A stretch of DNA of 64,000 bases from Sarea resinae (Eukaryota). The notes below the pieces were generated by a model, which made no database searches, had not been told where the DNA came from, and saw only the letters and a program-made list of their open reading frames with translations. Within the stretch, counting starts at the first letter, position 1; each line of letters begins with the position of its first letter. The position numbers were made by a program, and so were the translations under genes. The stretch covers positions 62,001 to 126,000 of the forward strand of contig JAPEUD010000031.1 in assembly GCA_026026165.1 (NCBI GenBank), written 5' to 3'. This document shows, piece by piece, positions 7,870 to 62,457 of this stretch.

Positions 7870-8012
7870 CCTAAGCCAGTCTACCCTTATAGATGTCGGG
7901 CAACGACATGTCTCTGTCCCAACATGCGGCGTCTCAGCCCATGGAAGTTGACCAGCCGACCGCGGCAGCTGGCGTGCCTTCGAAACCAAGGAGGCAAGAT
8001 AAGCCGAGATGG
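7870..8012 (+). pseudogene. Truncated 5' fragment (intron acceptor plus first ~39 codons) of the zinc-knuckle gene at 45988-46665
   Basis: MSGNDMSLSQHAASQPMEVDQPTAAAGVPSKPRRQDKP vs MSGNDMSLSQHAAQPMDVDQPTAAAGVPPKMRRQDKP; the upstream ctac.cttatag|ATG context is also shared; similarity stops just before the first Cys. Confidence 0.85.
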
Positions 8013-11749: not shown

Positions 11750-14700
11750 CTAAGCTGCTTTGGCAGCATGACTGTGGCTGTGGCCATGACCATGATCATG
11801 ATGGTCATGTCCACCGCATCCACTACCGCATCCCGCACCCTCCTCTTTCCCACTCCCGCTACCACTACCACTACCACATCCACCACTACCACAGTTCCCG
11901 CAGCCCCCGCTACATCCCCGAGGCGCATGAATGTACTCATGCATCTCGCGCAGATTGCGCTCGCGAATGACGGCCACGCACCGGTCGCACAGCGCCTTGT
12001 CCGGGTCGAGATCGGCCAGGTCGCCGTCCGAGGCGTATCGCCAGCACCGAGGACATTTGGCGCCGGAGGGGGGGAGGACGAGGATGGTGCCTTTGGTGTC
12101 GGTTTCGGTGTTATTTACAATTTCATTGGTGGTGGAGGGGGTGCTGGGAGAGGATGGGGGAAGGGCAAAGGAGGCGGTGTAGGACCATGCGTGCTCTGCG
12201 TGCTCTGCGGGGACTGTGGGAGAGGTCGGGATGGCGGCGAGTTCGGACAGTGCCTCGGGCCCCGCGAGCCGGACGTTCGAGACCACGAACAGGCTCTCCA
12301 GGTCTGGGAGATAGCGCTCGAACAGGCTGCGGGCGGCGGACGCGGCCGAGCCCTCGGGCAGCACGACCACGACGTCGGACCCCAGACTCGACCCGAGCTT
12401 CTTGTCCGCGCGCGCCTGCTCCTGCGCCGCCTTGACTGCGGTGTTGGCGGCCGAGAGCCAGGGGAGGTCGTTCTCGAGCTCGGGGTTCTGCCATTCGGTG
12501 GGCGCGCGAGGGTAGATGCGCTGTAGGGGCGTTTGGGAGGCTGTTTGGAGCGCCGCTGGCGTGTAGGCCCACGCTTCTTCGACGAGGAGGGGCGTCACGG
12601 GTGCGAGCATTGCTTGCAGGTGTTCGTAGATGTGGGCCAGGACCGTCTGCGCCGCCAGTCGGGAGAGGGAGTGCGGCGAGTCGGCGTAGAGGCGGTCTTT
12701 GAGTGTTTCGATGTAGAAGGCCGAGAGGTCGATGTTAATGTACTTTGTCAGTGCGTTGATGGCTACAGATATAAAGTTAGCATGACCAGAGACCACCATT
12801 TTCGATGGTAAAGTGAAACATGCCTTTGTAGAATTCATAGTTTTGATATGCATCCAACACCGCGTTAATCACGTGGGAGAGCTGCAGCAACGCCATCTGG
12901 TCGATCTTCGTGAGATCCTTGTAGGCGACCGCGAGTTTTGGATCCCAGTCCTCGAGAGCGCCGAGCAGGAGCTTCATCGTCACCCGGAATTTGTGCATGC
13001 TGGTGCTGACCGCTTTGAGAACAGGCTGGCCGATCACGACGTCCCGCGTGTAATCGCTGCTAGCGACCCATAGTCGCAGCGCATCCGGGCCTAGGCCGTC
13101 GTACATTGGCTTGTCCGTTTTCGGCTGGCCCTTGATTTTTTTCTTTTTCATGGGCGGAAGCAAAGTGCCGCTCATGATCTCGTCGGGCGATATGACATTG
13201 CCTAGGGACTTGCTCATTTTCTTGCCGGCTTGGTCGAGCGTAAATCCGTGGGTGATCAAGTTCTTATACGGCGCCGAGGATCCGGATGGAGTCGATTGAC
13301 CGCTCTGGTGTGCGACGTGCGTGAGCAGACTGGACTGAAACCAACCACGGTGCTGGTCGGTGCCTTCTAGATACACGTCCGCGAGAGCTTCGCCAGGACC
13401 TTTCGCCTGCAGTTGTGTCCAGCTGGTGCCGCTGTCAAACCAGACATCCATGGTGTCCCTGCCTCGCCGGTAGATGCTCTTTCCGGATGCCTCAAGAAGC
13501 TCTGGAGGAGTCCAAGCAGAGTCCTCGTCGGCGTCTGTCCACCACGCGTCAATGCCACGCTCGTCGATCACTTTCATAATGTGGCCGACACTTGCGTTTG
13601 TCAAAACTGCGGCACCGGTCTCCGTATGATACAACGCCGGGATAGGAACGCCCCACGCTCGCTGTCGAGAGATGCACCACTCGCTTCTGCCCTTGACGAA
13701 GCTTTCCAATCGAGCCTTTCCGGTCTCTGGGATGAACCGAACCTTGGCTAGAGCTTCGAGAGCGGGGCTCTTGATCCCTTGCACATCAGCAAACCACTGC
13801 TCGGTCGCCCGAACGATGACTGGCTGTTTGGAACGCCAGTCGTATGGATATTTATGCTTGTAGTTGTGCTTCGCAAGCAAAAGTCTAACCGAATCAATGT
13901 ATTTGATGACTTCCTTGTTACCCTCCTTCTGGACCTCCTTGCCCCGTAGAGTTTCCGGACTGTCCGGCATGGCTTCTTTGGTGAAACGACCTTCATCATC
14001 GACGGGTGCAAATGCCGCAATGCCTTGTTTGGTACACATTTCGTAGTCTTCCATTCCATGACCGGGCGCGCAATGCACAAGTCCCGAGCCAGAGTCGGCA
14101 GATACAAAGTCTGCATGGAGAATTTTCTGCGATGGTGAGCATGCTCCTCGGATGATATTGATGTACTCCGTGGTGCCAGCAATATCCGCTCCGGTAACTG
14201 TGTCTACTACGACCTGCGGCTCAACACCACCGAAACAGACGTCAAATACGTATGGTACCCTCGACTTGGCAAGCAATAGCTGGCCGTACTCGGGTGCTTC
14301 CACAATTGAGTATTCGAGGTCCGAATGGACTGCGATTGCTCGATTGGCAGGTAACGTCCATGGAGTGGTAGTCCATATCACAGCACCAAGCCTCTCCATA
14401 TCGACTCCTGGGTGAGACGCCAGTCCTAGAGAGAGTTTGGTGATTGGGAATTTCACAAATGCTGCGGTGGATATATGGTCGTCTTTGTACTCTAGCTCTG
14501 CTTCTGCCAGAGCAGAGCCGGAAGAAGGAGACCAGTACACAGGTTTGAATCGACGATAAATCAAGCCTGCCATCGATCAGTTTGGGATTTAACGTGCTCC
14601 TGCTGTGACCATACCATTCTCGACCATCTCTTTGAATATTCCTAATTGTCTTGTCTCGAACGTCTTGTCCATTGTTTGGTAGGCATTCTCCCAGTCGCCC

Positions 14701-22744: not shown

Positions 22745-23277
22745 TCTGCTCTTTTGGCATATCGTTTCCAGTACTGTTTGTATCTTTGTCGGATGGGCTG
22801 AGAAATAGCTTGAGGAAGAGCTATGAGCCATGACTAGCCATATTTGATGTAGGCGAAGCGGTGGGATGGGATGAGATGAAATGAGACGAGAAGATGAGAT
22901 AGGATGAGATGGGAAGCACATCGGTGAGGCCGGTACAGTTTGAATTCCACGGGACCAGGATTGAACGACTGGATGAATGAATGAACGAGTATTAGAGCGG
23001 TATGGGTGTTATGAGTGTTGGGGTCCGGATGAGTCTATTGGATTGGATATGACCACAAGCATGGGATGTAGACATGTACCCCGAGCATGTGAACTCGCGG
23101 TTTTGCGGGTGTACGGGTATATAGAAACGAGGAACGCCTTTGGAAGGGATTGGAGGGACAAGGTTGATGGATGAGGGTATGAGAAATGGATGGGGGAGAT
23201 GAAGTGAGAGGGGAAGCGAGGATATTGGGATAGAATGGAGAGAGAGAGAGAGCCAGAAAATCGAAAATCAATGACGA

Positions 23278-41801: not shown

Positions 41802-41872
41802 CACATTCACCTACTTCGGCTTTGCACATTCACCTACTTCGGCTTTGCACATTCACCTACTTTGGCTTTACA
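41802..41872 (+). repeat. 23-bp tandem repeat x3 (CACATTCACCTACTTCGGCTTTG)
   Basis: Read directly: two perfect copies and one with C->T / G->A changes. Confidence 0.9.
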
Positions 41873-43401: not shown

Positions 43402-43509
43402 CTGGATGAAGTAGGTGTCAGCAGGTAAGCTACAATCAATAGAACTAAAGGCTGAAGCGACGGAGAGAGCAGACCTTGAAGATTTTATCTGGTAGACTTG
43501 CTCTTCGAT

Positions 43510-43545
43510 GGGATGAGATGAGATGAGATGAGATGAGATGAGATG
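43510..43545 (+). repeat. (GATGA)n microsatellite
   Basis: Read directly. Confidence 0.9.
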
Positions 43546-44374
43546 CTTTTCTTTGATCGTGCTGTGGGTGGAAGCAGTGTCGATGTTGAGGATTCATTCA
43601 ATTGGTAGAGGGTTAGGGCTTCTCACCTTACTAGGTAGGCAGCGTGGATGATGAAAAGCTTGGTTACTGGCACTGGTCTTTGAAGGACGGTGTCTTGATC
43701 TTCTGTGGATGGATGCAGTGATGAGACTGAGGATTCAGTTCGATCGATGAAGGATGAGGGCTTCTTACCACAGGAAATGTGGATGATGGAAGATGTGGTC
43801 AAGGTAAGGTAAGCCGAAACTCGTCTGAGCTGATATTCCTCTGGTCTCTTCAGACCTACCTCACGCACGCTTATCAATCAGTCACTTACCTTACGAACGG
43901 ATGGACGGCCAGATGATTGAAATCTCTAAACAGGTCTTGTTGTCAACCAAGACTCTAACCTTCCCCTGGTTCATCTGCCGTGAGTTATACTCAAACTAAC
44001 AATCTAGTCTGATACACGACGAATTACAAGGGTTCTGTTATGTTTTGCCTCTAGTTCACGAAACATTTATCTTCATCAGATTCAAGTTTCCGTCCAAGTC
44101 TTCCTCGATTAAGCGGTTTGAGTAAGGTGAGAGTTGTGCTCTTTGACCAGTAGACAACGTCAAGATTGAGGCCTCACAAAGAGATAAGAGCGATTATGAG
44201 AGAAAGATGGCTTACGGCCTTGTCTACAAAACGATCCAACGATATCGCTAGCATACTTCATCAGGTTGCTAAAACCTTCCGTAGAGTGAAGATCGGTATC
44301 GAATACTGGGTAGTTCGAGGAATTGCTATGGAACTAACCCAAAAAGAAGAAGACAAAAGGAAGAAAAAGATAGT

Positions 44375-44734: not shown

Positions 44735-45406
44735 TCATGACGCCGTTGTCTGTCCAGCTTGAGCCAGCCTCACGAGCCCTTCCCCGTCCACGCGCATGCC
44801 CATCCACTCCGTCATGCCCACGGCCCCCAGGGATTCGTAGAACTTGATGCTGGGCTCATTCCACCGCAACACGCTCCACTCGAGCCTCTTGCCGCCGATT
44901 CGGACCGTCTCGGCCGCCAAGGCCCCGATCAGCGCCTTGCCGTACCCACGGCGCCGAAACGCGGGCCGGATGAAGAGATCCTCGAGGTAGACACCCGGCG
45001 CCGCCCGCCACGTGCTGTAATTTGTGAAGTACAGCGCTAGTCCGGCGATCTGCTCGGACGCAGTGTTCTTGCTGTCGGTGGACGGCGTGGAGACCGTGAT
45101 CAGGAACGTGGATGCGTAGCCTTGGCGCGGAGAGACGGAGTCGGCGAAATTGAGCGTGCGCAGCAGCGAGTCCGTCGTCGCTTCTACTGAAGAGGCAGCG
45201 TGCTCGTAGGCCGCGAGTTCGTGGATTAGGGCTAGGATCTCGTCGACGTCTAGGATGGGCAAGAGTGAGTCAAGGTACCTAAGTCTGTCTTTGGGATGAT
45301 GTGCTGGGAAAGCCGGAGGTCTAGCGGACTTGCCTTCACGCCGCGCTTGCCGGATCGTGGCTGGGCCTGTTGGTGTCATTGTCCGTATCTTGGGTCTGCT
45401 TTCCAT
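44735..45406 (-). CDS. GNAT N-acetyltransferase (SSAT/Ats1-like), 2 exons
   Basis: ILALIHELAAYE, GLALYFTNYSTW, GVYLEDLFIRPAFRRRGYGKAL, RLEWSVLRWNEPSIKFYESLGA. Confidence 0.92.
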   Translation of the reverse strand: MESRPKIRTMTPTGPATIRQARREGKSARPPAFPAHHPKDRLRYLDSLLPILDVDEILALIHELAAYEHAASSVEATTDSLLRTLNFADSVSPRQGYASTFLITVSTPSTDSKNTASEQIAGLALYFTNYSTWRAAPGVYLEDLFIRPAFRRRGYGKALIGALAAETVRIGGKRLEWSVLRWNEPSIKFYESLGAVGMTEWMGMRVDGEGLVRLAQAGQTTAS

Positions 45407-45794
45407 TACTGAAAACGCACTTGACGCGGTTGCAGGCACTGGAGCGAACACAAGACAAGCGATCCAGATTGAGATGTCGCGGGCTCAATGTCAAGCGTGG
45501 TGGGGTCCGAAGTGAGGCGGTGAGGCGAATTGAGTCCGTGACAAGGCTGGCAGAATCATGCGGGTAAGGTAGGGGCCACAAACGCCAAGGTCAGTATGCA
45601 ATTCACGTGACCGACTCCAGTGCTACTACACCACATCATCGACCACGGTCACACACGAGCACTCATAAAGCGATTCACAACGGTACCGGATATTTGGAGA
45701 AGAAAATGCATTATAGGTAAAAAAATAAGGCTTTGTTCGGGACAATGCTTGACGCTATGCTCGATTGGTTGCCTTGCGAAAAAAAACCCCATTT

Positions 45795-45942
45795 GAGTCT
45801 GCTAAAAGCACGTCCTCAAGGTAGAAGTGCTAAGTGCACGTTCTCTTAGAGTCTGCTAAAGTGCACGATTCTCTGTGATTTGGAAGAGTCTGCTAAAGTG
45901 CATGTCCGCTGAAGGTGGAGGAGTCTGCTAAATGCAAGTTCT
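45795..45942 (+). repeat. Five spaced copies of GAGTCTGCTAA(A)GTGCA
   Basis: Copies near 45796, 45825, 45849, 45886 and 45921; a related copy at 49882. Confidence 0.85.
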
Positions 45943-45987
45943 CAATCACGTCCTTGGTCATTTTCACCTTGGAACATACGGCTTGTC

Positions 45988-46665
45988 TTATTTGCCGTAT
46001 ATCTCATCAAAGGTTCGGAGAAGGTTTTCATATTGTTCCTCGCCGAACAGAGCAGGCTTTGTGTCTTCCTCATGTCTAGGCTCGCGCTGGGGCTCTGCAG
46101 CCTCTGGTTCAGCGGCCTTTGGCTGCTGCTGCTGCTGTCGCTGCCGGCCCGACCGCGGCGGAGGGCCGGTCTGCCGATCCCGATAGGATGGCGGGGCCCT
46201 TGATTGTCGCCTTGGTGGCGATCTGGAGCGGTCCCTGCCAGCGACTGCTCTGGCGAATGCCGCTGCTTGACCTTCCGTCTGGAAGGTGAGGTTGAACAGT
46301 CCGCCCGTGGCCTGGGCTTGGTTCGTCGGACCAGATCTGGCTTGGGGCGGCCGGCATCTAGGTTCGCGTTCGGCCCTCTGCTGGGGCCTCTGCTGGGGCT
46401 TCGGCCTCCAACAGTACCGTTCGGCGTGGCCGACTCTGCCACAGTTTCTGCACGTGGCTTTGCAGGCGTCTTTGTGCCGATTACCACATCGGTCACAGAC
46501 GGGGCGGGGGTTGGTGCACTGCCCGAGGTGCCCTTTGCCACAGTCCGGGCATTTCGGCTTGTCTTGCCTCCTCATTTTCGGAGGCACGCCAGCTGCCGCG
46601 GTCGGCTGGTCGACATCCATGGGCTGAGCCGCATGTTGAGAGAGAGACATGTCGTTACCCGACAT
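45988..46665 (-). CDS. Gag-nucleocapsid-like protein with three CCHC zinc knuckles
   Basis: CPDCGKGHLGQC and CDRCGNRHKDAC (Cx2Cx3Hx3C), CRNCGRVGHAERYC (Cx2Cx4Hx4C); Arg/Gln/Pro-rich tail with RSRSPPRR; two upstream 5'UTR introns. Confidence 0.8.
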   Translation of the reverse strand: MSGNDMSLSQHAAQPMDVDQPTAAAGVPPKMRRQDKPKCPDCGKGHLGQCTNPRPVCDRCGNRHKDACKATCRNCGRVGHAERYCWRPKPQQRPQQRAEREPRCRPPQARSGPTNQAQATGGLFNLTFQTEGQAAAFARAVAGRDRSRSPPRRQSRAPPSYRDRQTGPPPRSGRQRQQQQQPKAAEPEAAEPQREPRHEEDTKPALFGEEQYENLLRTFDEIYGK

Positions 46666-46964
46666 CTATAAAGGTAGGTTAGCTATGTCGTCTCATATGC
46701 AGTCGATCTTACCTTGATAAATCCAAAGCTATCAGCAGAAGAGATGATTAGACGTTAGCTGGCGTCATAGACTGTTTGGTCTGTCTTCTAAATACCTTTT
46801 GGAGGAGCTTTGTTGGTGGTGGTTGATGAAATTGATGTTCTTGGGCTTCGTCTTCTGTTGATGATGGGCAGCGTTTTTGGTTGAGAGAGAGAGGAAGAGA
46901 GGAAGAGAGGCTGTGGGATTATAGTACTCGGCTACGACGTTCAAGGCCTTAGGGCCCCGTGATT

Positions 46965-47055
46965 CACTGCGTGCTTTGTGATTCACTCAGTTGCGTATCT
47001 TATGGACTTATCTGTCTAGGTGAATGACACGTGTGAATGTGTGAGCTGGTTGTGT
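46965..47055. promoter_or_regulatory. Putative promoter block with GTGATTCAC repeats, duplicated at ~47820-47970
   Basis: gtgattcac..tttgtgattcact..atggacttatct..acgtgtgaatgtg occurs in the same order at both positions. Confidence 0.5.
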
Positions 47056-47327
47056 TTATAGGGCGATCTAAATGCCTTCTAAAGCCAGATCAAAGCTGCG
47101 TAGGCCTTTTCTTTGAGATCCTTGATAATGGAATGTATTTGAAGCTGATGCTTATATTTCCTTCTTGGTTGTTATAATTCTTGGTGGCTGTAATAACATA
47201 TGAGGCGCGCTGATATGTAACAGGCATATAAGTGTTCAATGCCCAACTTTTTCTGTTTCGTAAACTATTTTTTCTAGCGATCGCGCCCGCGTCTATACCG
47301 ACGACTGTGTATAATCTGATCGATTTC

Positions 47328-47760
47328 CTATTCTAGTCCTTTGGTTGCAACGTTTAAGACCGGCCCTAGTCGTCGATGTCTGAACTTCTTTGGCTGGGAT
47401 TTCGCCTCACATCCAGCCTTCTGCTCGGGAAAGAGTTCCCAGCGATGCTGTTCTGCGTGACCAACTTTACCGCAGGCACTGCAGCGGCGATTGCTTAAAC
47501 CGCCATGCATTCCCCGAAGTGCTGTCTTCCGCACGACAGACAGAGCCTTGTATTGCTTAGCTGTCTCTGGTATTCGGAAGCTGCCTTATTCTTTTTCCTG
47601 TAGATAGTAGCCTTGTTAATTAGAATAGTATAATCTTCTATAAATAAGGATAGTCTTAGGATAATAGATGATAGCCTTAGGTCTTATAAGCTTAAAGGCT
47701 ATATACTAAAGTAAGTAGGCTTGTGTTCTTGTTGTAGAGAAGATGAAGATAGAAGACGGA
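47328..47760 (-). pseudogene. Decayed (RIP-like) paralogue of the zinc-knuckle gene
   Basis: CLSCGRQHFGEC followed, after a stop and frame change, by CSACGKVGHAEQHRW; TA-rich flanks. Confidence 0.7.
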
Positions 47761-48203
47761 CCGCAGATATAGATTATCATATAGTCTAGCTACAGCGGTT
47801 TACGGCTTAGCTCTTTGTAATTGACTCGGTAGTTTGTGACTCACTGAGTGGATTATGAGTGGTTTATGATTCACTAAGTTGTTTGTGATTCACTTATTTT
47901 GTCTAAGTAATGGATTTATCTACCTATCCATGGATGTCAATAGGACGTGTGAATGTGAGTTGGCTGTGTCAACGGTGGGTGAATGACCTACTACCCACTC
48001 GTCAAACCATCACTCTCTCTCAGGCGTCCATCATTCCCACCCTCAACTCTTCTCTCATTGCCTTCTTCACTGCATCATCCACATCTACTGCATCGCATCA
48101 TATCTCGATTCTTACTGCCCTCTTCACTGCATCCGATCACATCTACTGCAAAAGGTACTTGAATAATCGCGTTCGTAAGGATATCAACTACGAGCGGAAA
48201 GAC

Positions 48204-49690
48204 ATGTCCGCCCGATCAAAGAGACCAGCCAAACAAGAAGATGAGGAGATCCAGCGCGCAAGGATCGTGTGCAAAAGCTTCTCAGTCAGTTGTCCTCTTC
48301 CAGTGCTGTCGATGATCCACCGGCCCAGTGGTCCAAATGGTCCAAATGGTCTAAATCGTCGGTCCAGGACTATTGGACCAGACCAGAGAAGTACGTCATC
48401 AAGCCCTTCTCATGATAGAACTTAATCCGCCCATATAGAGCAGCTGGAGACAGTCTTGTCCCCAGAGCGGAACATGAAGCGGCCAAAGCCACCCGCCACG
48501 CCTGCCGTCGTGAAATCCTCAATGATAAGAGGTGCCGCAAGAAGGAGAGGAAGGCGAATGAACGAGCCATAAAGGGAGAGGCAAGCCGGCAGTCTGCTGG
48601 CAAAGGACCATGATTGCTCGACCAAGTCGGCCCCGGGTGCGATCATGAGGCAGCATCCGCAACCGCTTCACGTCTAGGCCCCCGAAGCAGCGCTCTCGAC
48701 AAGAAGGGCCAGAATGCCTCGGGATAAGAAGAAGCCAGCGAAGAAATAGACAATGATAGCTTCAGACAAACACACACGGCTTGTTACTGCGACCACACAC
48801 AATGTCAGCCTGGCTCAGGACAAAGGCAGAAAGCCTAGCCATTGCTAGAAGGGAACAATCTAAGCTACTGTTTTTCCACCCAGCTTGTTTCTAACACATG
48901 CTTAACTCTCAAGGGATGCATATCTTGCGGAGGTACACAGATCTACTTAGCATCATAGCTGAAGCGTACTAGTAGCAGGCAGTCTATCTTTTGCTTGAAC
49001 TAAGTGTGTCTGTTTCATGTCTCTATAGTGGTGATCAATATAATCCTAAGAAGCAGATTAGATCCCTATCAGTCGTATAGTGAGCAATATAATATTACAG
49101 CCTCCTACCTTTTAGCTTGCGGAAGACCAAAAGGCATATAGAGCTCAGCTAATCCTCATCTCCTTGTCGGCGACTCTACAGAAATCGAGCTGCTTGAAGT
49201 TGAACGTATATCTATGAATTAAGGATGTCGTAGAATTAGAGTTATCTTGCCGTAGGCTAACGGACACGAGCAGGAACTACCTTAAGTAAGGTAGCGTGCA
49301 TGTCTTTACAGGGGGACGGCAAATTGCCAACTAAGGTAAACGAGCAAATTCCAGGAGTCAAACTTGAATAAACCTCCAGCTTTGGAGATTGAAAATCAAA
49401 AGGTGGTACGTTGACTTGCGCATGCTGTTCATCTGCTTAGTGTAGGATCGATGGGGATGATGCAGGGTGTGTTAAAAATGGGATCTTCATGCCTGTTTCG
49501 TACGGTGAAGTTGCCGTGCTCAGCGCGGGGCAGCTCCGGACGATAGCTGAGACGTTCGACGATAATTGTCTAAAACTCGCATATTACGTAAGCATTTACC
49601 CAGCTAGCTTAGCAATCATCATGGTTAGTCCATACTAGTAAGACGGGATAATACAGCAAGGGGATCCCCTATATAATTACTCATTATACA
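48204..49690 (+). pseudogene. Decayed multi-exon gene of unknown family
   Basis: MSARSKRPAKQEDEEIQRARIVCKSFS exon; later splice-flanked exons GDGKLPTKVNEQIPGVKLE*TSSFGD*KSKG and IDGDDAGCVKNGIFMPVSYGEVAVLSAGQLRTIAETFDDNCLKLAYY|gtaagc. Confidence 0.5.
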
Positions 49691-49901
49691 GCGACCCGCC
49701 TCATAAATTATTACAGCAAGTCACAATTATTACAATCACTAAAAATATATATAAGCACAAGCTTTAAGTCTGTTTTATTAATAAAAAATTTTCAAAAAAA
49801 ATAAGCCCAAGCAGCTTCGAGCTGGCTTTAGATAGGCACTTAAAAATCTTGAAAAAAATCTTAAACAAAAGTAAAAAAAAAGAGACTGCTAAGTGCAATG
49901 T

Positions 49902-51409
49902 CTAAAAATCCTGGAACCAATCTTCCTGTTCTGCCTCTGCAGTGATCCTCACTCGAAGTGGGATCGCGGCCTGCGAAGAGGCGGGCTCTTGGGCAGCTTG
50001 TCGAGCAGCTTGCTCAGCGGCTTGGGCTGCACGCTGAGCAGCGTTCATCCTGGTCATGTTTTGAGACCACTGATCATTTGTGGTGGATGGTAACGCGCCC
50101 GGAGGTGATGGGTTGACGGGCAAGAGAATTTGCTGTGGTGGCTATCCACTTCTCCATCCCGTAGGCACCCACCATTTTAAGTTCGGCAATGGAGAACTTC
50201 ATCCCGAAATTTTGCATCTGGCCAAGCGCCAGGACGAGCTGCGGCTCATGCTCAAGGATGCCAGACTTTTCAAGGGCCTTGTAGGCGCTCAGGTCGGCCT
50301 TGTTGACCGCCTTCTTGATTCTCTCAGTCAGTTTGCCCTGTTGTTCATGGGCCCAGACCACGGCATTCTGACTCAATTGATTTTCATCGAGTGTCAGATG
50401 CTTCTGGCACTGCTGATCCTTTCTTGGGCCCTGAGCAAACCTCGCGATGCTCGAAAAGAGATCTGGCACAGTTGCCCCTTCCATTGCAGTCTTGTGCAGA
50501 CCATGCTGACCGAGCTCCAAGCTTGGGCGACGGAGCCATACTTCAAGGTCTTGAAGATCTGAGCACCGTGCAAGTCGTGGTCGGAGAACCACAGGAAAGG
50601 CACGGATTTGTATTGAAGCGCGTGGTCCAAGAGGCAAAGAAATTCTCGAGTACCCTCATCGGGATACCCGGCGGTCTGTCGGAGCGTTAGCAAGGCCAAT
50701 CGGAGAAGGCAGCTGCGTACTCACCATGACGATGATGAATCCTTGCAGGAATTCATCTTGATCTGCCCATGCCGTGGCCAGATTCCGGTGCTCGGTCACC
50801 ATGACTCCGCGTACGCGGCCGGGCCTTTGCCTCGAACTTTCAGGCGAGCGACCATATCCGGAATATTGCACGTTTTGGCCAACCTGGCCGTGTCGACGGG
50901 CTTGTTCTTATGATACTTGAAAACATCATTGACCATGTCGACTGTAATCTCCACATCACGGGAGAGGGACACTTCACCATTGCACTGGCCTTGAAGACCA
51001 AACGACCTTGGATGGACGCCGATGGTGACGGCCCAATTATCGATCTGCGCCTTGACCTGGGCCTTTGTCATCCCGTTCGAGCGGTTGCTGTAACCGATCA
51101 TTCGGTACTTCATCAGCTCTCCTGCGTTGATTTGCTTCATTAGTCGCACGCCCATCCACATTATTTGCTTGTAAAAGATCCGATATCGTCGGAAGTCTCG
51201 CAGGGTGGGATTCGTGTATCGGAGATGCAGCCAGCTTAATGGCCATTGACCAATACCTTGCCTTTTTTTGGTTGGCTTGCCCCAAATTCGACGTAGGTCT
51301 CCTGGCTATGATCCAAGTCAGTCATCACTTCGTGGATCTTACTGACGATCTGAGAGGTCGAGATCTGGTCTCTCCAGTTAAGATTAATCGGTTCCATTTC
51401 GAACGGCAT
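49902..51409 (-). pseudogene. Divergent Spo11 / topoisomerase VI subunit A-like gene, interrupted by frameshifts (pseudogene or assembly indels)
   Basis: Collinear motifs KYRMIGY (cf. RDIYY), VKAQIDNWAVTIGVHPRSFGL...GEV, VMVTEH (TOPRIM Glu), IIVM|TAGYPDEGTREFL, FSDHDLHGAQIFKTLKYGS (DxD), RLQWKG, QMQNFGMKFSIAEL; intron 50676-50724. Confidence 0.8.
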
Positions 51410-51663
51410 TTTGATCGATTTCTAGAAGAAAGTAAGCTTTTGGAATGTAAAAGGCTGTTACTTCTCGAAAATTTGGATCGTCTTGGTAATGTGATGATGT
51501 TGGCTTGAATTGTGGTTGTACGAAGTAGAGAGTCAGGTTATGAGAAGAAAGGAAGGAGTAGGTAAGCGAAGCAACAGCAGTGACTCATGTGCTTTTGATC
51601 CAACCTGCCGTCTACGGTAATTCACGGACTTTCCAATAACAATCCGCTTTCTTTCAGTTCATC

Positions 51664-52319
51664 TCATCTCATCCTCAAGACCGTACAAGACCTTACCATA
51701 CTTTTCTCATCACACTCCATCACGCAAGCTTCCAAGTTCATACTTTCGATCTCCGCGACCACAGCAAAGACTTGACGATGGAGTGGATCGAGCCTGAATG
51801 GTTTGAGATCAAAGCATTTGGTGAGCCGCTTCCCGACTTCGCCCGTGTACCGCTTGTCAAGGCGGATAAAGAGCTGTCTCATGTCTAGAACATGGTCAAC
51901 ATGCTCTGGGAAATGAAGACGGCAGTCTGGACGAAGAAGGCGAAAAGAGATATGCTGTGTCGTATCTGCGGCCCTATGATTCTTGGCCTGAAGGTACTCA
52001 GGGAAGTGGCGACTGAAAGGTACTTGTCGGACTTGTCAGTGAATCTCCAGGAGCAATGGATGGCTGTGAGATTATTCAGCTTGATTCCGGCATCGTAAAG
52101 AGCATCGAATCAGCTAACGCCTTATAGATTCTCGAGCAGAAAGACGTCCAGGATTATAATGGTCGCATCCCGGATAAGCAGACATATGTCGCTATCCAAT
52201 TGGCCATCATTCCAATCAAGGTCGAGATGAAGATCGCCACTGAAGCCGATGAGTCGGTTGGACGTCCCACCAGCAGATTCACTTTGAGCTAAATTCGGTA
52301 GGAAACATTCACTGTTCAT
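51664..52319 (-). pseudogene. Possible degenerate gene relic
   Basis: Consecutive same-strand protein-like frames interrupted by stops; no family recognised. Confidence 0.25.
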
Positions 52320-52931
52320 CCTAGTTAGAGAATCATCTCTGGATACAGATACACATGCCCTTGCCGGGCAGCCTGGCTAAGCTTATTGCACTAAGCACTC
52401 GCATCTGATACCTGAGATCAGGTCTTGCCTACACGGCTCTCTCGTTGTGCTCAGCACGTACTGCAGTAGACCCAAATAAAGTGTCTCCACCTCTGATTGT
52501 GTTTTTCGTCCATGCTGTAAATAATGCGATCTATCTAATTCTTACGATGCAAGCTAGTGCTTTGATCCAGGGGTAAGTACTTCGGTACCTGCTATTCCGA
52601 GATAGACGTTCCTCGTACCCGCAGATCTCGAGTGTGAGATAAGATTATCTTATCGCCGGCTTCCGCCGTCAACGCCTGGTACGACCAGGTTCCTCGGTAC
52701 CGATGGTGGCCATGCGAGCCCCACCTACGCCCTATCGATAACATTCGGGGACGGGAATAGTCATATTCTTCGCTTTTAAGCTTCACAAAACAGCCATATC
52801 GTGACTCATCGTATCAACGCTATGCTGAGTTTTTCATTGAAAAGAAAAGCATCGAATTGAGCAGCCGCTGCCTTCCTTCGTTCATTCTTCATCCTCACTT
52901 TCACTGCCATTCTTTACACACTGCAGGCATC

Positions 52932-54445
52932 ATGACAGATGCCAATGTTCCTTCCGTCTCGGAGCTGAGTCTCGCCCCCAAGCCCACTCCCTTTGGCCAT
53001 GAAATGCGAAAACACTTCCTCTTCGACAAAGATTGGACGCCTCTCAATCATGGTTCGTCCTCGCTGTCCTCTCGTCAGTTGCATCCGTGCCAGCTGAAAG
53101 TGATATCTAGGCTCATATGGCACGTACCCGCGACCCGTTCGTGATCGACTCCGCGCCATTCAAGACCAAGCCGAAGCGGCTCCCGACGCCTACCTTCGCA
53201 ACGACTATGTGCCATTGCTAGAAAAGTCCCGAGCGGCCATGGCCTCGCTCCTCAATGTGGAAATCTCGACTCTCGTCTTTGTGCCCAACGCCACGACGGC
53301 TACAAATACGGTGCTTCGAAGTCTGCGCTTTTCGCCGGGGGAGAAAATCATCTACTTCTCGACCATCTATGGCGCGCTTGAGAGGACCGTCGATTATATC
53401 ACTGAATCCACCCCCGCAGAGGCGGTGAAGATCCAATACGCCCAGCCCGTCAATGACGACTTCCTCGTCGCGGCGCTGAGAGACACGATCAGGAAGGAAA
53501 GGAGTGAGGGGACCGAACCTCGTGTCGCCATCTTCGATACCATCTCCAGCATGCCTGGGTGCCGGTTGCCATTTGAGCGTCTCACAGAGGTCTGTCGCGA
53601 AGAGAACGTACTCAGTCTCGTCGACGGCGCCCACGGAGTGGGACAGATTCCCATTGATCTGGGCGCTCTGCAACCCGATTTCTTCGTCAGCAACTGCCAT
53701 AAGTACGCCTTCCTCTCGTCTTTCTCTCTTTCAGCATGCTCATTCAAATCATAGATGGCTCTTTGTACCCCGAGGGTGCGCAATTTTCTACATCCCGACG
53801 CGAAACCAGCACCTCATACGGTCGACGCTGCCCACTTCGCATGGCTTCGTGCCACTACCAGACCCCTCCAACCCGACACCGTACACGCACTACCCGTTTA
53901 TGGTGAAGTCCGCGGTGCCGCCGCCCTTCTACCAAGCATTTTCATTCGTCGGCACAACGGACAATACACCGTTCCTGTGCCTGCCCGCGGCTCTGGACTT
54001 CCGGTCCCGCGTCTGTGGCGGCGAGCAGAAGATCATGGACCACAACATCGCGCTCGCCCAACAGGGGGCGCACCTCATCGCCGACGCTCTGGGCACCGAA
54101 GTGATGGACAATGCCGCGCATACGCTGACGAAGTGTGCGCTCGCCAATATACGCCTCCCACTGTACGTGTCAGGTACGAAGGCCAATCAAGAAACCACCG
54201 AAGCCGCCTCATCAACGGAAGACGCCATCCCCGTCGCTGCCGAACATATCGGCGCTGTGACAACCTTCCTAGCGACGCGGATGATGAGCGAATCCCACAC
54301 GTTCATTCCCGTCTTTTTCTACGACGACAAATGGTTCGCGCGCGTGTCCGGCCAGGTGTACCTCTCGCTGGACGACTTTGAGTTTGGCGCTCGGGTGCTG
54401 AAGGAGTTGTGTGAGAGGGTGAGGAAGGAGGAATATCTGGCTTGA
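52932..54445 (+). CDS. PLP-dependent class-V aminotransferase / C-S lyase (hercynylcysteine sulfoxide lyase Egt2-like), 3 exons
   Basis: PLNHG|SYG, FVPNATTATNTVL, DGAHGVGQ, PDFFVSNCHK|WLFVPRGCA, PTSHGF, RVSGQVYL. Confidence 0.88.
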
Positions 54446-60498: not shown

Positions 60499-62457
60499 TC
60501 AGACCTTTGCCACCTTCAGCTCCTGCACTTCCTCTCTCTCAAGCTCGACGGCTTGCTCCTCGGTCATGAATTCCTCGTCGTCAATCTTCCGGAACCAGCA
60601 GTAGAAGATGACTGCAGAAAGAAGACCAGCTACGGCGGTCGCCACAAACGGCCAGATCAAATGAGGATCCACGAGCACATCGACGCAAGCTTCGGAGATG
60701 GCCGCCGAGATTGCGGTCGTGAATAAGAAGAGGGCCATCACGAGACCCTTCATGTTCTTGGGAGACCGTGCATATGCAACCTCATAGGCGGTCACGTTGA
60801 CAAAGCACTCGGACACGGCCTGCAGGACCCACATAGGCGTCTCTGCCCAGACGGAAATTGGAGAGACTCCAGTACCATCGTCACAACTGGTGGCGTAATA
60901 TCCGCATGGAGATGTCTTATATACCCGCCATTGGAGAATGGCACCTATGGCCGAAGCGACAGCGGCCAGCATGAAGCCAAAGGTGATGCGCTTTATCCGG
61001 CCGAAATTGATGTTGTGCTTGCGGAGAAAAGGATAGATGAGATAGGTCAAGATTGGTACGGCAACGATGATGGTAAGCGGATTGAAGTTGTTGATCAGGT
61101 CGTTCGGAGCGCCGTTGGTTGTCATGGCCGAGCCCATGGATGTCTGGATGTTTCCAATTCCTCCATCGTTGAGGTTATAGACCGGGTAGAAGATGAAGAT
61201 CTGGCAGGCAACGAATGTTCGGCCAACATCCTGGACGAAAGCATCCGTCCAATCGATGGGCTTGTTCCTAAAGGTGGTGACACCTTCGGCTGCCAAGACT
61301 GTTGGCTTCGCGGCATCCAGGAAGCCGCTACGCCCGAATTTCCAGATTCCGTTCTTCTTGATGGCCATGCTAATGATCTTAATCACCTTGCCCAGGTCGT
61401 TTCCACTCGGAGGTTTCTTGATCGTTCGCTTGTAGGCAAAGACGAGAACGATGGGCATCAAGAAGTATACGATACCAGGAAGGAGATATGCAAGCCAGTA
61501 GCCAACATCCTTCTCGGCATATGAGGTGGCCACGCCAAAGAAGGCGCCGACATTCACCAGCCCGTAAAAGGTAAGCATCATCCTTTGAACGGTGGCTTCA
61601 GGGTCGACGATGACACGCTCGCCCGTCTTGAGCGTCTGGATCAATGGCCTCTGGTGCGGATACTGGTCAATGACAGTCGGGGCGATGTTGCTCTTGAACA
61701 AACCTATTGGACATGTTAGGAAAGAAAGTATGTCTGCTCGTATGACATACCGGCTCCAAAGGCAAGTATAATCAGACTGATGGCGAATGGGGCCATGCCA
61801 TGACCCGCTTGCAAAACGCTGGGCAGAGCGCCAAAGACCATGATGATATGGCCAATACCTGCCACGACAACACCGACGCAGATCATCGTGTAACGACCGT
61901 ACTTGACGTCGGCAAGCCATCCACCCAAGATGGGAATCGTAAACGCCAGGAATTGGAAAAGCAGGGTCATGGCCGAAGACGTCGCGAGCCCTCTGTTCAG
62001 TGCTCCGGCCGTCTCTTGCGTACCTCTCGGAGGAGCTCCTGCGCCATTCCCCCCTTTCGGCAGCGGGAACTCTACAAAATTCGAGAAGACCCGCGAACAT
62101 CCATAGTACGACGCACGCTCAGCAAACTCGACCGCGCACAGCAGATATGCAATATTGGGAACTGAGCCGGCCACTTTGCGCAAAGTCAACAGCTCTTCTT
62201 CTGTCGGCACCTTTCCGAATATCTCGACGTCTCCTAGGTCCGGATCAATAGGTCCCACGGCATGGTTGATGGCTGTGGCCTGGACGGAAACGTGCTTCTC
62301 ATCCGGGTAGATGGAAACGCTTGGCCTCTTCTCGTCCAGGACCTCAACGGCCATACTATTTGTGGTGAGCACATCGGCTGTGAATTGCGGATGGCCAGCT
62401 AACTCAATGATTCACATTAGACAGAGTACAGAAGGCAGAAAGACTGGGCATACCCAT
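60499..62457 (-). CDS. PTR2: Proton-dependent oligopeptide transporter (POT/PTR family), 3 exons
   Basis: VEFAERASYYG, GGWLADVKYGRY, GAG|LFKSNIAP, FYGLVNVGA, AYARSPKNMKGLV; ATG at 62457 is a 4-nt first exon. Confidence 0.93.

Follow-up and report, generated by a model that had tools for sequence, protein, structure and literature searches.

A decayed Spo11-like nuclease gene beside a zinc-knuckle gene in Sarea resinae, a candidate copy of a recurrent fungal gene module

We analysed 64 kb of the genome of Sarea resinae (Ascomycota), namely positions 62,001 to 126,000 of contig JAPEUD010000031.1 in assembly GCA_026026165.1 (parent contig, 239 kb). This whole stretch is referred to as the window, and its first nucleotide (nt) as position 1. 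Between a gene for a GNAT acetyltransferase and one for a class-V aminotransferase-fold protein, the window holds a gene related to Spo11 and to the A subunit of topoisomerase VI (topo VI-A), an intact gene for a zinc-knuckle protein and the relic of a second knuckle gene, all three on the minus strand. An earlier interpretation of the letters alone, here called the sequence-only reading, had taken this interval for a selfish or mobile module, either the remnant of an element whose cutting enzyme is Spo11-like or the cargo of a larger one. With modest confidence, we read the region as a decayed copy of a lineage-restricted, fast-evolving module that consists of a nuclease gene and a partner gene and is subject to birth-and-death evolution.

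The Spo11/topo VI-A-like gene occupies 51409-50074 on the minus strand, from an ATG at 51409-51407 to a stop codon at 50076-50074. It was located by tblastn and by the Toprim family PF21180, which a window open reading frame (ORF) matched with 38.8 bits against a cut-off of 24.1, in agreement with the earlier claim of a Spo11-like gene on this strand. Frame tracing by tblastn with 37 homologues and by alignment to the proteins P0003, P0022 and P0013 gave the order -1, -3, -2, a canonical 49-nt intron (50724-50676), -3 and -2. The frame changes lie within 51266-51237, within 50834-50812 and at a G-run (50478-50475). At the G-run, L-Q-W-K-G directly abuts A-T-V-P-D-L with no spare bases; in 50834-50812, the linker between the two frames measures 27 nt; and the switch within 51266-51237 (about 30 nt) is flanked on both sides by blocks conserved in the Sarea paralogue P0003. 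Because no intron fits at these three switches, the gene is a pseudogene and not one continuous frame after plausible introns, a broken state that the sequence-only reading had not noticed. An 89-nt intron at 51258-51170 was ruled out, as it would delete residues conserved in P0003. A fourth frameshift is possible near the low-complexity C-terminus. Apart from the frame changes, the homology-supported segments are free of stops and the R-x3-Y, E and DxD codons are kept (the metal-site codons read VTEH and SDHD), which suggests that the inactivation was recent.

These same features, the uninterrupted segments and the complete set of catalytic codons, would also be expected of a gene that is functional and whose frame changes are read errors or are somehow bypassed. 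A model of the latter kind has been deposited: P0001, a hypothetical protein of 415 residues from a Sarea resinae metagenome-assembled genome, is 100% identical to the N-terminal Spo11-like ORF of the window. One of the three frame changes does fall in a short G-run, and the second assembly available to us was built from the same reads. We nevertheless consider a functional gene very unlikely. The second assembly, an independently assembled Logan contig of run X1 that spans 48355-52914 at a depth of about 383, showed 0 differences and 0 gaps; X1 is possibly the source sample of the window, so this comparison is a check on the assembly and not on the biology of another isolate. Housekeeping ORFs elsewhere in the window are long and intact (599 and 741 residues, for example), and therefore the assembly is not full of frameshifts. 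At two of the three sites the distance between frames is too short for an intron, and the branch of the window copy is twice as long as that of its sister (1.67 versus 0.85). Finally, the "introns" of P0001 cut out residues conserved in the family, among them the L-x-W-x-G-P block and a portion of the N-terminal domain. The P0001 model is an annotation artefact of the pseudogene that bridges the three frameshifts, and, being forced over them, it is unsuited as a functional sequence. Runs X2 and X3 held next to none of the sequence words of the gene (pieces of 35-66 nt with less than 90% likeness), and no RNA run carrying it was found among the runs listed.

The pseudogene belongs to a small family of fungal proteins. 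A phmmer search with P0001 against 1.84 billion representatives returned only 101 proteins at E<=1e-3, including the query (49 at 1e-10), and therefore canonical Spo11 is beyond the reach of this query. We looked up 30 of the clusters, and all 16 that carried a name were ascomycete. They comprised Teloschistaceae (Gyalolechia, Variospora, Teloschistes, Caloplaca, Pyrenodesmia and Calogaya), Ramalina, Bacidia, Capronia, Lithohypha, Phaeomoniella, Pyrenula, Cirrosporium and the second Sarea gene, P0003, which is intact (33% identity); all belong to Lecanoromycetes, to Eurotiomycetes, or to Sarea or Cirrosporium. The alignment search added Seirophora and a second Pyrenula copy. The low number of the locus tag A1O1_00005 of the Capronia coronata member (P0049) suggests a place near the start of a 4.6-Mb scaffold; judged from the tag only, this gene is possibly subtelomeric. 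Two matches to viral contigs were discarded, both being out-of-frame artefacts in a GC-rich phage gene. In the literature searched, supplementary tables aside (including passages of PMC11302465, PMC9665070, PMC7671362, PMC6652019 and PMC12203943), neither the fungal family nor the module is described, and the family is apparently so far undescribed.

By sequence profile and by modelling, the family has the fold of topo VI-A and Spo11. PF21180 was reached by all 14 members scanned (33-69 bits), whereas none of them reached the cut-off of TP6A_N (best, 16.9 bits versus 26). A profile of 34 members searched against structures matched topo VI-A (1d3y_A) with E 2e-15 and yeast Spo11 with 2.7e-4. 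An AlphaFold2 model of P0003 (predicted local distance difference test score 88.5, predicted template-modelling score 0.84) found topo VI-A 9o0g_A in Foldseek with E 9e-13. In VIA-align, it superposed on Methanosarcina mazei topo VI-A with Z 29.2 and a root-mean-square deviation of 3.1 Å over 337 of 359 residues, model residues 17-435 being aligned on chain residues 10-368; against yeast Spo11, Z was 22.5. The R-x3-Y motif is present in the family consensus, with the tyrosine (Y93) in at least 90% of 26 sequences and likewise in at least 90% of 28. In the Toprim domain, E173 is invariant and D227 and D229 occur in at least 90% of the 26 sequences, and the E, D and D positions are invariant in a set of 34. 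By fold and residues, the family thus consists of full-length type IIB A subunits. Spo11 starts meiotic recombination, and the family is set far apart in sequence from its canonical meiotic form; with several paralogue lineages in one fungal family, it does not fit one-to-one orthology with Spo11 either. For comparison, the canonical Spo11 that our metagenome scan returned at a locus designated L005 scored 56.9 bits with TP6A_N and 96 bits with Toprim, as against no TP6A_N match and 33-69 bits for members of the family. We therefore rejected L005 (7740-9218), which comes from an intron-poor eukaryote, as a family member. On its metagenome contig, this Spo11 adjoins a CDC20/Fizzy gene.

The knuckle gene of the window is represented by the ORF 45988-46665 on the minus strand, which matches the deposited protein P0002 (220 residues, 46650-45991) at 100%. 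P0002 contains three CCHC knuckles at residues 34-80 followed by an R/Q/P-rich tail, and the Pfam family zf-CCHC stayed below its threshold. This agrees with the earlier call of a knuckle gene, though not with its label "Gag-like": no Gag or capsid domain of Pfam matched P0002, and the first knuckle begins after only about 30 residues. Its decayed paralogue, also called earlier, was recovered at 47334-47542 on the minus strand by tblastn with P0002 in frames -1 and -3 (combined E 4e-6); it has no middle knuckle, and its final one lacks the last Cys. A further piece, which the sequence-only reading had not noticed, is a detached copy of the 5' end of the knuckle gene at 7881-8011 on the plus strand (88.5% over 131 nt, inverted repeats I1/I2). 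Lying 38 kb from the gene, it consists of the 5' leader and the first 34 codons, with 85% amino-acid identity. A second X1 contig carries variant letters and a 3-nt insertion in 46527-46642, a stretch that is also copied at 7881-8011.

The flanks of the knuckle gene contain repeated elements as well. An upstream block at 46960-47055 is 70% identical over 105 nt to a second copy at 47867-47969 (repeat families D3 and D5) and carries paired TGATTCAC sites. The duplicated block contains five of the eight TGAYTCAC sites of the window, a total that is not above the 5.3 expected. In the 3' flank, the motif GAGTCTGCTAAA occurs in four spaced copies at 45795-45932 on the plus strand (direct repeat D7). 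Written as GAGWCTGCTAAR, the same motif stands behind the knuckle gene (these four copies) and behind the Spo11-like gene (one, 49882-49893); in total, 8 matches were observed versus 0.99 expected, and none of 100 shuffles reached 8. The shared cis motif that had been noted between these genes is therefore borne out for their 3' flanks.

Evidence that genes of these two kinds belong together comes from outside the window. A metagenome scan with an eight-sequence alignment (A2) yielded, besides L005, the four fungal loci L001 to L004. L001, L002 and L003 are orthologous (94-100%) and L004 is independent. The best match of the Spo11-like protein of L001 is P0045 (85%) and that of L004 is P0065 (56%), and the L004 protein is about 40% alike to those of L001 and L002; we therefore treated L001 and L004 as separate lineages. 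The four Spo11-like genes had no close relative in common among the proteins compared. In L004, a gene for a Ulp1-type protease on the minus strand and the Spo11-like gene on the plus strand stand head to head with 258 nt between them; 4.9 kb downstream of the latter comes a double-knuckle gene whose product is rich in glycine. In L001, a gene for a 422-residue protein with RGG repeats, a double knuckle and a coiled coil lies 4 kb upstream of the Spo11-like gene, and in its orthologue L002 a Ulp1-type gene lies downstream. The knuckle regions of L004 and L001 are homologous (BLASTP 7e-11), as are the Ulp1-like genes of L004 and L002 (tblastx 3.5e-44). The third context is P0023 of Teloschistes flavicans, a single model of 815 residues in which the Spo11-like part is followed by the same C-x2-C...C-W-P-x-C...double-knuckle pattern (found by regular expression); its C-terminal part matched the knuckle genes of L004 (4e-10) and L001 (6e-9). 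Altogether, a double-knuckle partner was found within 0-5 kb of the Spo11-like gene in three of three outside contexts (L001-L003, L004 and P0023), and a homologous Ulp1-type protease in two of three. Co-occurrence elsewhere had been named beforehand as a test by the sequence-only reading, and it was observed in each context.

Several other features of these loci were recorded. Directly behind the Spo11-like gene of L004, a 433-residue ORF (11776-13074) encodes a C-terminal chromodomain and an RGG tail; it had no counterpart in L001 or L002. At 17389-17391 of L004 (minus strand), an in-frame TGA separates the double knuckle from the coiled-coil part with no intron signals around it, and could be a second case of module decay or an error in the metagenome contig. 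By eye, three of the four knuckle-type proteins (P0002, the L001 ORF 4176-5549 and the L004 ORF 16417-17388) end in an acidic C-terminal stretch with an Ile/Leu-Tyr pair (DEIYGK, DDLYDFRF and DEILYEGEL), which may be a short docking motif. The Atlas had no usable match for the L001 knuckle protein; for the Ulp1-like protein, the nearest entries were expanded Ulp1 clusters, mostly of Basidiomycota (a lead only).

Whether the window pair is an instance of the same association is less clear-cut, and several points weigh against it. The outside contexts seen are three, and P0023 may merge two genes. P0002 itself matched the partner with BLASTP E values of 4e-4 (L001) and 0.05 (L004), and neither a hidden Markov model (HMM) of three double-knuckle sequences nor phmmer recovered the window knuckle gene among 1383 window ORFs; with the HMM, the window relic ranked third to fourth (E about 0.3) and the intact gene fell outside the top 12. 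No Ulp1-like sequence was present in the window, and a comparison of it with the Ulp1, chromo and other ORFs of L001 and L004 gave no match. Of the 30 clusters looked up, 14 had no name, so the taxonomic range given above is a minimum. On the other side, when the partner region of P0023 was searched against the 64 kb, its two best matches were the knuckle gene and its relic. The match to the intact gene scored 38.1 bits uncorrected, a value that none of 150 shuffles reached; with composition correction, the same tblastn match had an E value of 0.006. Given this weak similarity, the pairing in the window rests partly on architecture and position. A sceptic could hold that the two are chance neighbours, in which case the Spo11-like gene would have arisen from meiotic Spo11 by duplication and divergence and would have no connection with the knuckle genes: HMMER finds no significant likeness between P0002 and the partner family, many cellular proteins contain CCHC knuckles, and the outside contexts are few. 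We think this improbable, as the outside partners are homologous to one another and stand close to the nuclease gene in every context, the partner region of P0023 picks out precisely the knuckle gene and its relic, and the two window genes have a 3' motif in common.

The evolution of the family is suggestive of rapid turnover. In a quick tree of 45 members (rows of fewer than 300 residues dropped, rows cut to 520 residues), Teloschistaceae fell into at least three separate lineages, whereas the two Sarea copies were sisters, as were the two Pyrenula copies. Between the orthologues of L001 and L002, the ratio of nonsynonymous to synonymous substitution rates (dN/dS) was 0.71 over 368 codons, so that evolution between close relatives appears nearly neutral. 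These two relatives, which are 94% identical, also differ by a 3.2-kb insertion or deletion at the 3' end of the Spo11-like gene (L002:3868-7103 versus L001:11045). The L002 segment had no Pfam match; because the L002 reading continues into the C-terminal motif of other members, we read the difference as a deletion in L001, which seems to have lost the segment together with the usual C-terminal tail of the family. Old paralogue lineages within one fungal family, paralogues within species and pseudogenes together point to birth-and-death evolution, a pattern that would fit genetic conflict or weak constraint. Two caveats apply to this reading: 18 of the 42 inner branches of the quick tree were unsupported, and a dN/dS of 0.71 could equally mean that these genes are sliding into decay everywhere.

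We also examined the repeats and the mutational signature of the region. A 146-nt inverted repeat that had escaped the sequence-only reading has its left arm at 47069-47207 and its right, more AT-rich arm at 49697-49842, in the 3' flank of the Spo11-like gene (72% identity, E 1.7e-12). The flanks of the two arms have at most a TA in common. We rejected the repeat as transposon ends or as a module boundary because the Spo11-like gene and the intact knuckle gene fall outside it. Repeat-induced point mutation (RIP) was assessed by a high TpA/ApT ratio, a low (CpA+TpG)/(ApC+GpT) ratio and a composite index above 0. The composite index was positive only at 47251-48000 (0.28-0.30), that is, over the knuckle relic and its upstream block, and ranged from -0.84 to -1.91 over the Spo11-like gene. 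The RIP indices that the sequence-only reading had suggested computing are thus RIP-like for the relic and not for the nuclease gene, and RIP was ruled out as the cause of the decay of the latter.

One of the two proposals of the sequence-only reading was the remnant of an element with a Spo11-like cutting enzyme. In a fuller form, this would be a selfish or mobile element of cut-and-paste or homing type with knuckle and Ulp1 accessories, whose window copy inserted between the GNAT and aminotransferase genes and is now dead. This explanation is unlikely in our view but carries some weight. It gains from the fact that the linkage is kept although the flanks differ (L001 has Anp1, L004 a fungal rhodopsin domain and an AAA ATPase, and the window GNAT and aminotransferase) and that gene order and orientation vary among the loci. 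CCHC, Ulp1 and chromo domains are frequent accessories of eukaryotic DNA transposons. Several paralogue lineages per fungal family and paralogues within species, the pseudogene, relic and detached 5' fragment of the window, the presence of a 146-nt inverted repeat in the region and, as a lead only, the expanded Basidiomycota Ulp1 families nearest to the Ulp1-like protein would likewise be in keeping with mobility. So would the dN/dS of 0.71 and the in-frame TGA of L004.

The expected marks of an element were, however, lacking. Termini and a target-site duplication (TSD) were sought, and no terminal repeats or TSD enclose the coding genes in the window or in L001, L002 and L004; the only long inverted repeat leaves out both key genes. 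The sequence-only reading had recognised no reverse transcriptase (RT), integrase, DDE transposase, Rep or tyrosine recombinase, and we similarly obtained no such Pfam match in 94+13 window ORFs; nor was any recognised transposase or recombinase family found in these 107 ORFs or in 141 ORFs of the related loci. The module occupies the same site in L001 and in L002/L003, each protein cluster looked up is on one or two contigs, and at a likeness of at least 80% one long X1 contig covers the nuclease gene (a statement about contigs, not a copy count). Neither GC content nor RIP index departs from the ordinary across the module in L001, L002 and L004 or over the window gene; the genes have canonical fungal spliceosomal introns; and the window is otherwise made up of housekeeping genes. 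The 3.2-kb difference between L001 and L002, taken as a loss from L001, likewise gives mobility no support. Of the original proposal, the recurrent module and its decay are thus retained (three of three contexts, three frameshifts, a relic and a 5' fragment), whereas mobility found no support in termini, TSD or transposase.

That the genes are cargo of a larger element reaching beyond the window, such as a Starship-type giant transposon, is more improbable by far. The module genes are lineage-restricted and patchy, and relic and fragment copies are found within the window, as cargo might be. The 64 kb are, however, filled with core genes (ORFs of at least 120 residues), among them a class I aminoacyl-tRNA synthetase (tRNA-synt_1), a kinesin, a protein kinase, a FYVE/Rabenosyn-type protein, transporters and a peroxiredoxin; the 94+13 ORFs contain no captain-type tyrosine recombinase or other mobile-element family, and no shift in composition occurs along the window.

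Comparison with known systems places the fungal enzymes closest to topo VI-A. Spo11, topo VI-A and the fungal family have in common the whole-chain fold, the PF21180 Toprim, the R-x3-Y, E and DxD residues and an N-terminal segment, the part of the A subunit that contacts the B subunit in topo VI according to PMC7671362. They differ in that the fungal proteins are only about 12-16% identical to the solved structures and stay below the TP6A_N cut-off, and in that a search of about 10 kb around the gene in the window, L001, L002 and L004 gave no GHKL B-subunit family, the linked partner there being the knuckle protein.

Beyond plants and some protists, additional A subunits of type IIB are known mainly in prokaryotic viruses and plasmids, in the form of Mini-A and Topo VIII. 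According to PMC7671362, these homologues too are stand-alone A subunits with a catalytic Tyr, a preceding Arg and E/DxD residues, have no recognisable B subunit nearby and, like the fungal family, have no function assigned to them. Mini-A has about 300 residues according to the same text, as against 400-500 in the fungal proteins. On the fungal side the N-terminal segment is present, the model aligning from chain residue 10 of topo VI-A; the fungal genes are moreover nuclear with spliceosomal introns, and their placement on a mobile element lacks support. JetD/MksG of Wadjet-type plasmid defence is a topo VI-A-like Toprim nuclease that works with partners, as we propose for the fungal family. 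The likeness is weak, with several members scoring at or close to the cut-offs of the Pfam families JetD_C and DUF2399 and with Z scores of 11.5-12.3, a far poorer fit than that to topo VI-A; the fungal loci are without structural-maintenance-of-chromosomes (SMC)-type partner genes, and the fungal family retains the catalytic tyrosine motif.

The partner genes invite comparisons of their own. Retroelement Gag or nucleocapsid proteins have two or three CCHC knuckles, as the fungal knuckle proteins do, and likewise contain disordered stretches of basic character. In the fungal proteins, by contrast, the knuckles are N-terminal behind about 30-80 disordered residues and are followed by a coiled-coil or Q-rich and acidic tail, no capsid or Gag family matches, and RT, protease and integrase genes are absent from the vicinity. 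Mutator-like and KDZ DNA transposons carry the same kinds of accessory domain as those found beside the Spo11-like gene in L004 and L002; the fungal loci, however, are without a DDE, RNase H-type or other known transposase, terminal inverted repeats, TSDs or any sign of many copies.

If the module works as residues and fold suggest, the enzyme, with a 5Y-CAP winged helix and a Toprim domain, would by analogy act as a dimer and would break the two strands of DNA by means of a tyrosine that ends up covalently bound to the 5' ends; the Toprim E and DxD residues would bind Mg2+. The glycine/arginine-rich protein with a double CCHC knuckle and a coiled coil would be its nucleic-acid-binding partner or targeting factor, and a Ulp1-type SUMO protease would often join the two. 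In the window, three frameshifts have disabled the enzyme gene, while one knuckle gene stayed intact, a second became a relic and a 5' fragment was copied to a place 38 kb away; the module here would now be unable to cut DNA.

Such a module may serve its host, for example in genome defence or in the sexual cycle, or it may serve itself. A selfish origin we regard as possible but unlikely. Doubtful, too, is the fuller proposal that the module is or descends from a new kind of eukaryotic selfish element, in which a topo VI-A/Spo11-type enzyme makes 5'-tyrosyl breaks to move or home, the knuckle protein guides it and Ulp1 blunts the SUMO response, the window being a dead copy. Were it true, it would add an enzyme class to those of eukaryotic mobile elements and would bear on the links between topoisomerases and recombinases. 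Under the reading of a decayed birth-and-death module that we favour, the loci represent a candidate second Spo11-type family, fast-evolving, catalytically complete as judged by its residues and accompanied by a recurrent partner, in lichen-forming and related ascomycetes. The family could then serve as a natural experiment on the role of a Spo11-type nuclease away from meiosis, whether in genome defence, in a lineage-specific sexual function or as selfish DNA.

The remaining features of the interval and its surroundings are as follows. The flanking genes, both outside the module, are those that had been named before: the GNAT acetyltransferase gene lies at 44735-45484 on the minus strand (PF00583, E 7.7e-14), and the class-V aminotransferase-fold gene begins at about 52930 on the plus strand (52930-54445; PF00266, E 3.4e-16) and is plausibly Egt2-like. 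Two gene calls of the sequence-only reading found no confirmation when Pfam was searched with small ORFs included. At 47907-48613 on the plus strand, where a decayed multi-exon gene had been seen, there are ORFs with no Pfam family and no similarity to the related loci; at 51640-52376, where another relic had been placed, there are ORFs on both strands with no Pfam family above noise and no homologue. The A-rich spacer was located as a stretch of this composition at 49770-49880. Of the TA-rich patches that had been described, AT-richness exists but is modest (GC 40-44%). Outside the module, a 23-nt unit beginning CACATTCACCTACTTCGGCTTTG is present in three tandem copies at 41802-41872, downstream of a gene of sugar-transporter type, and simple repeats of GATGA/GATGG type occur 20 kb apart at 22855-22927 and 43506-43556.

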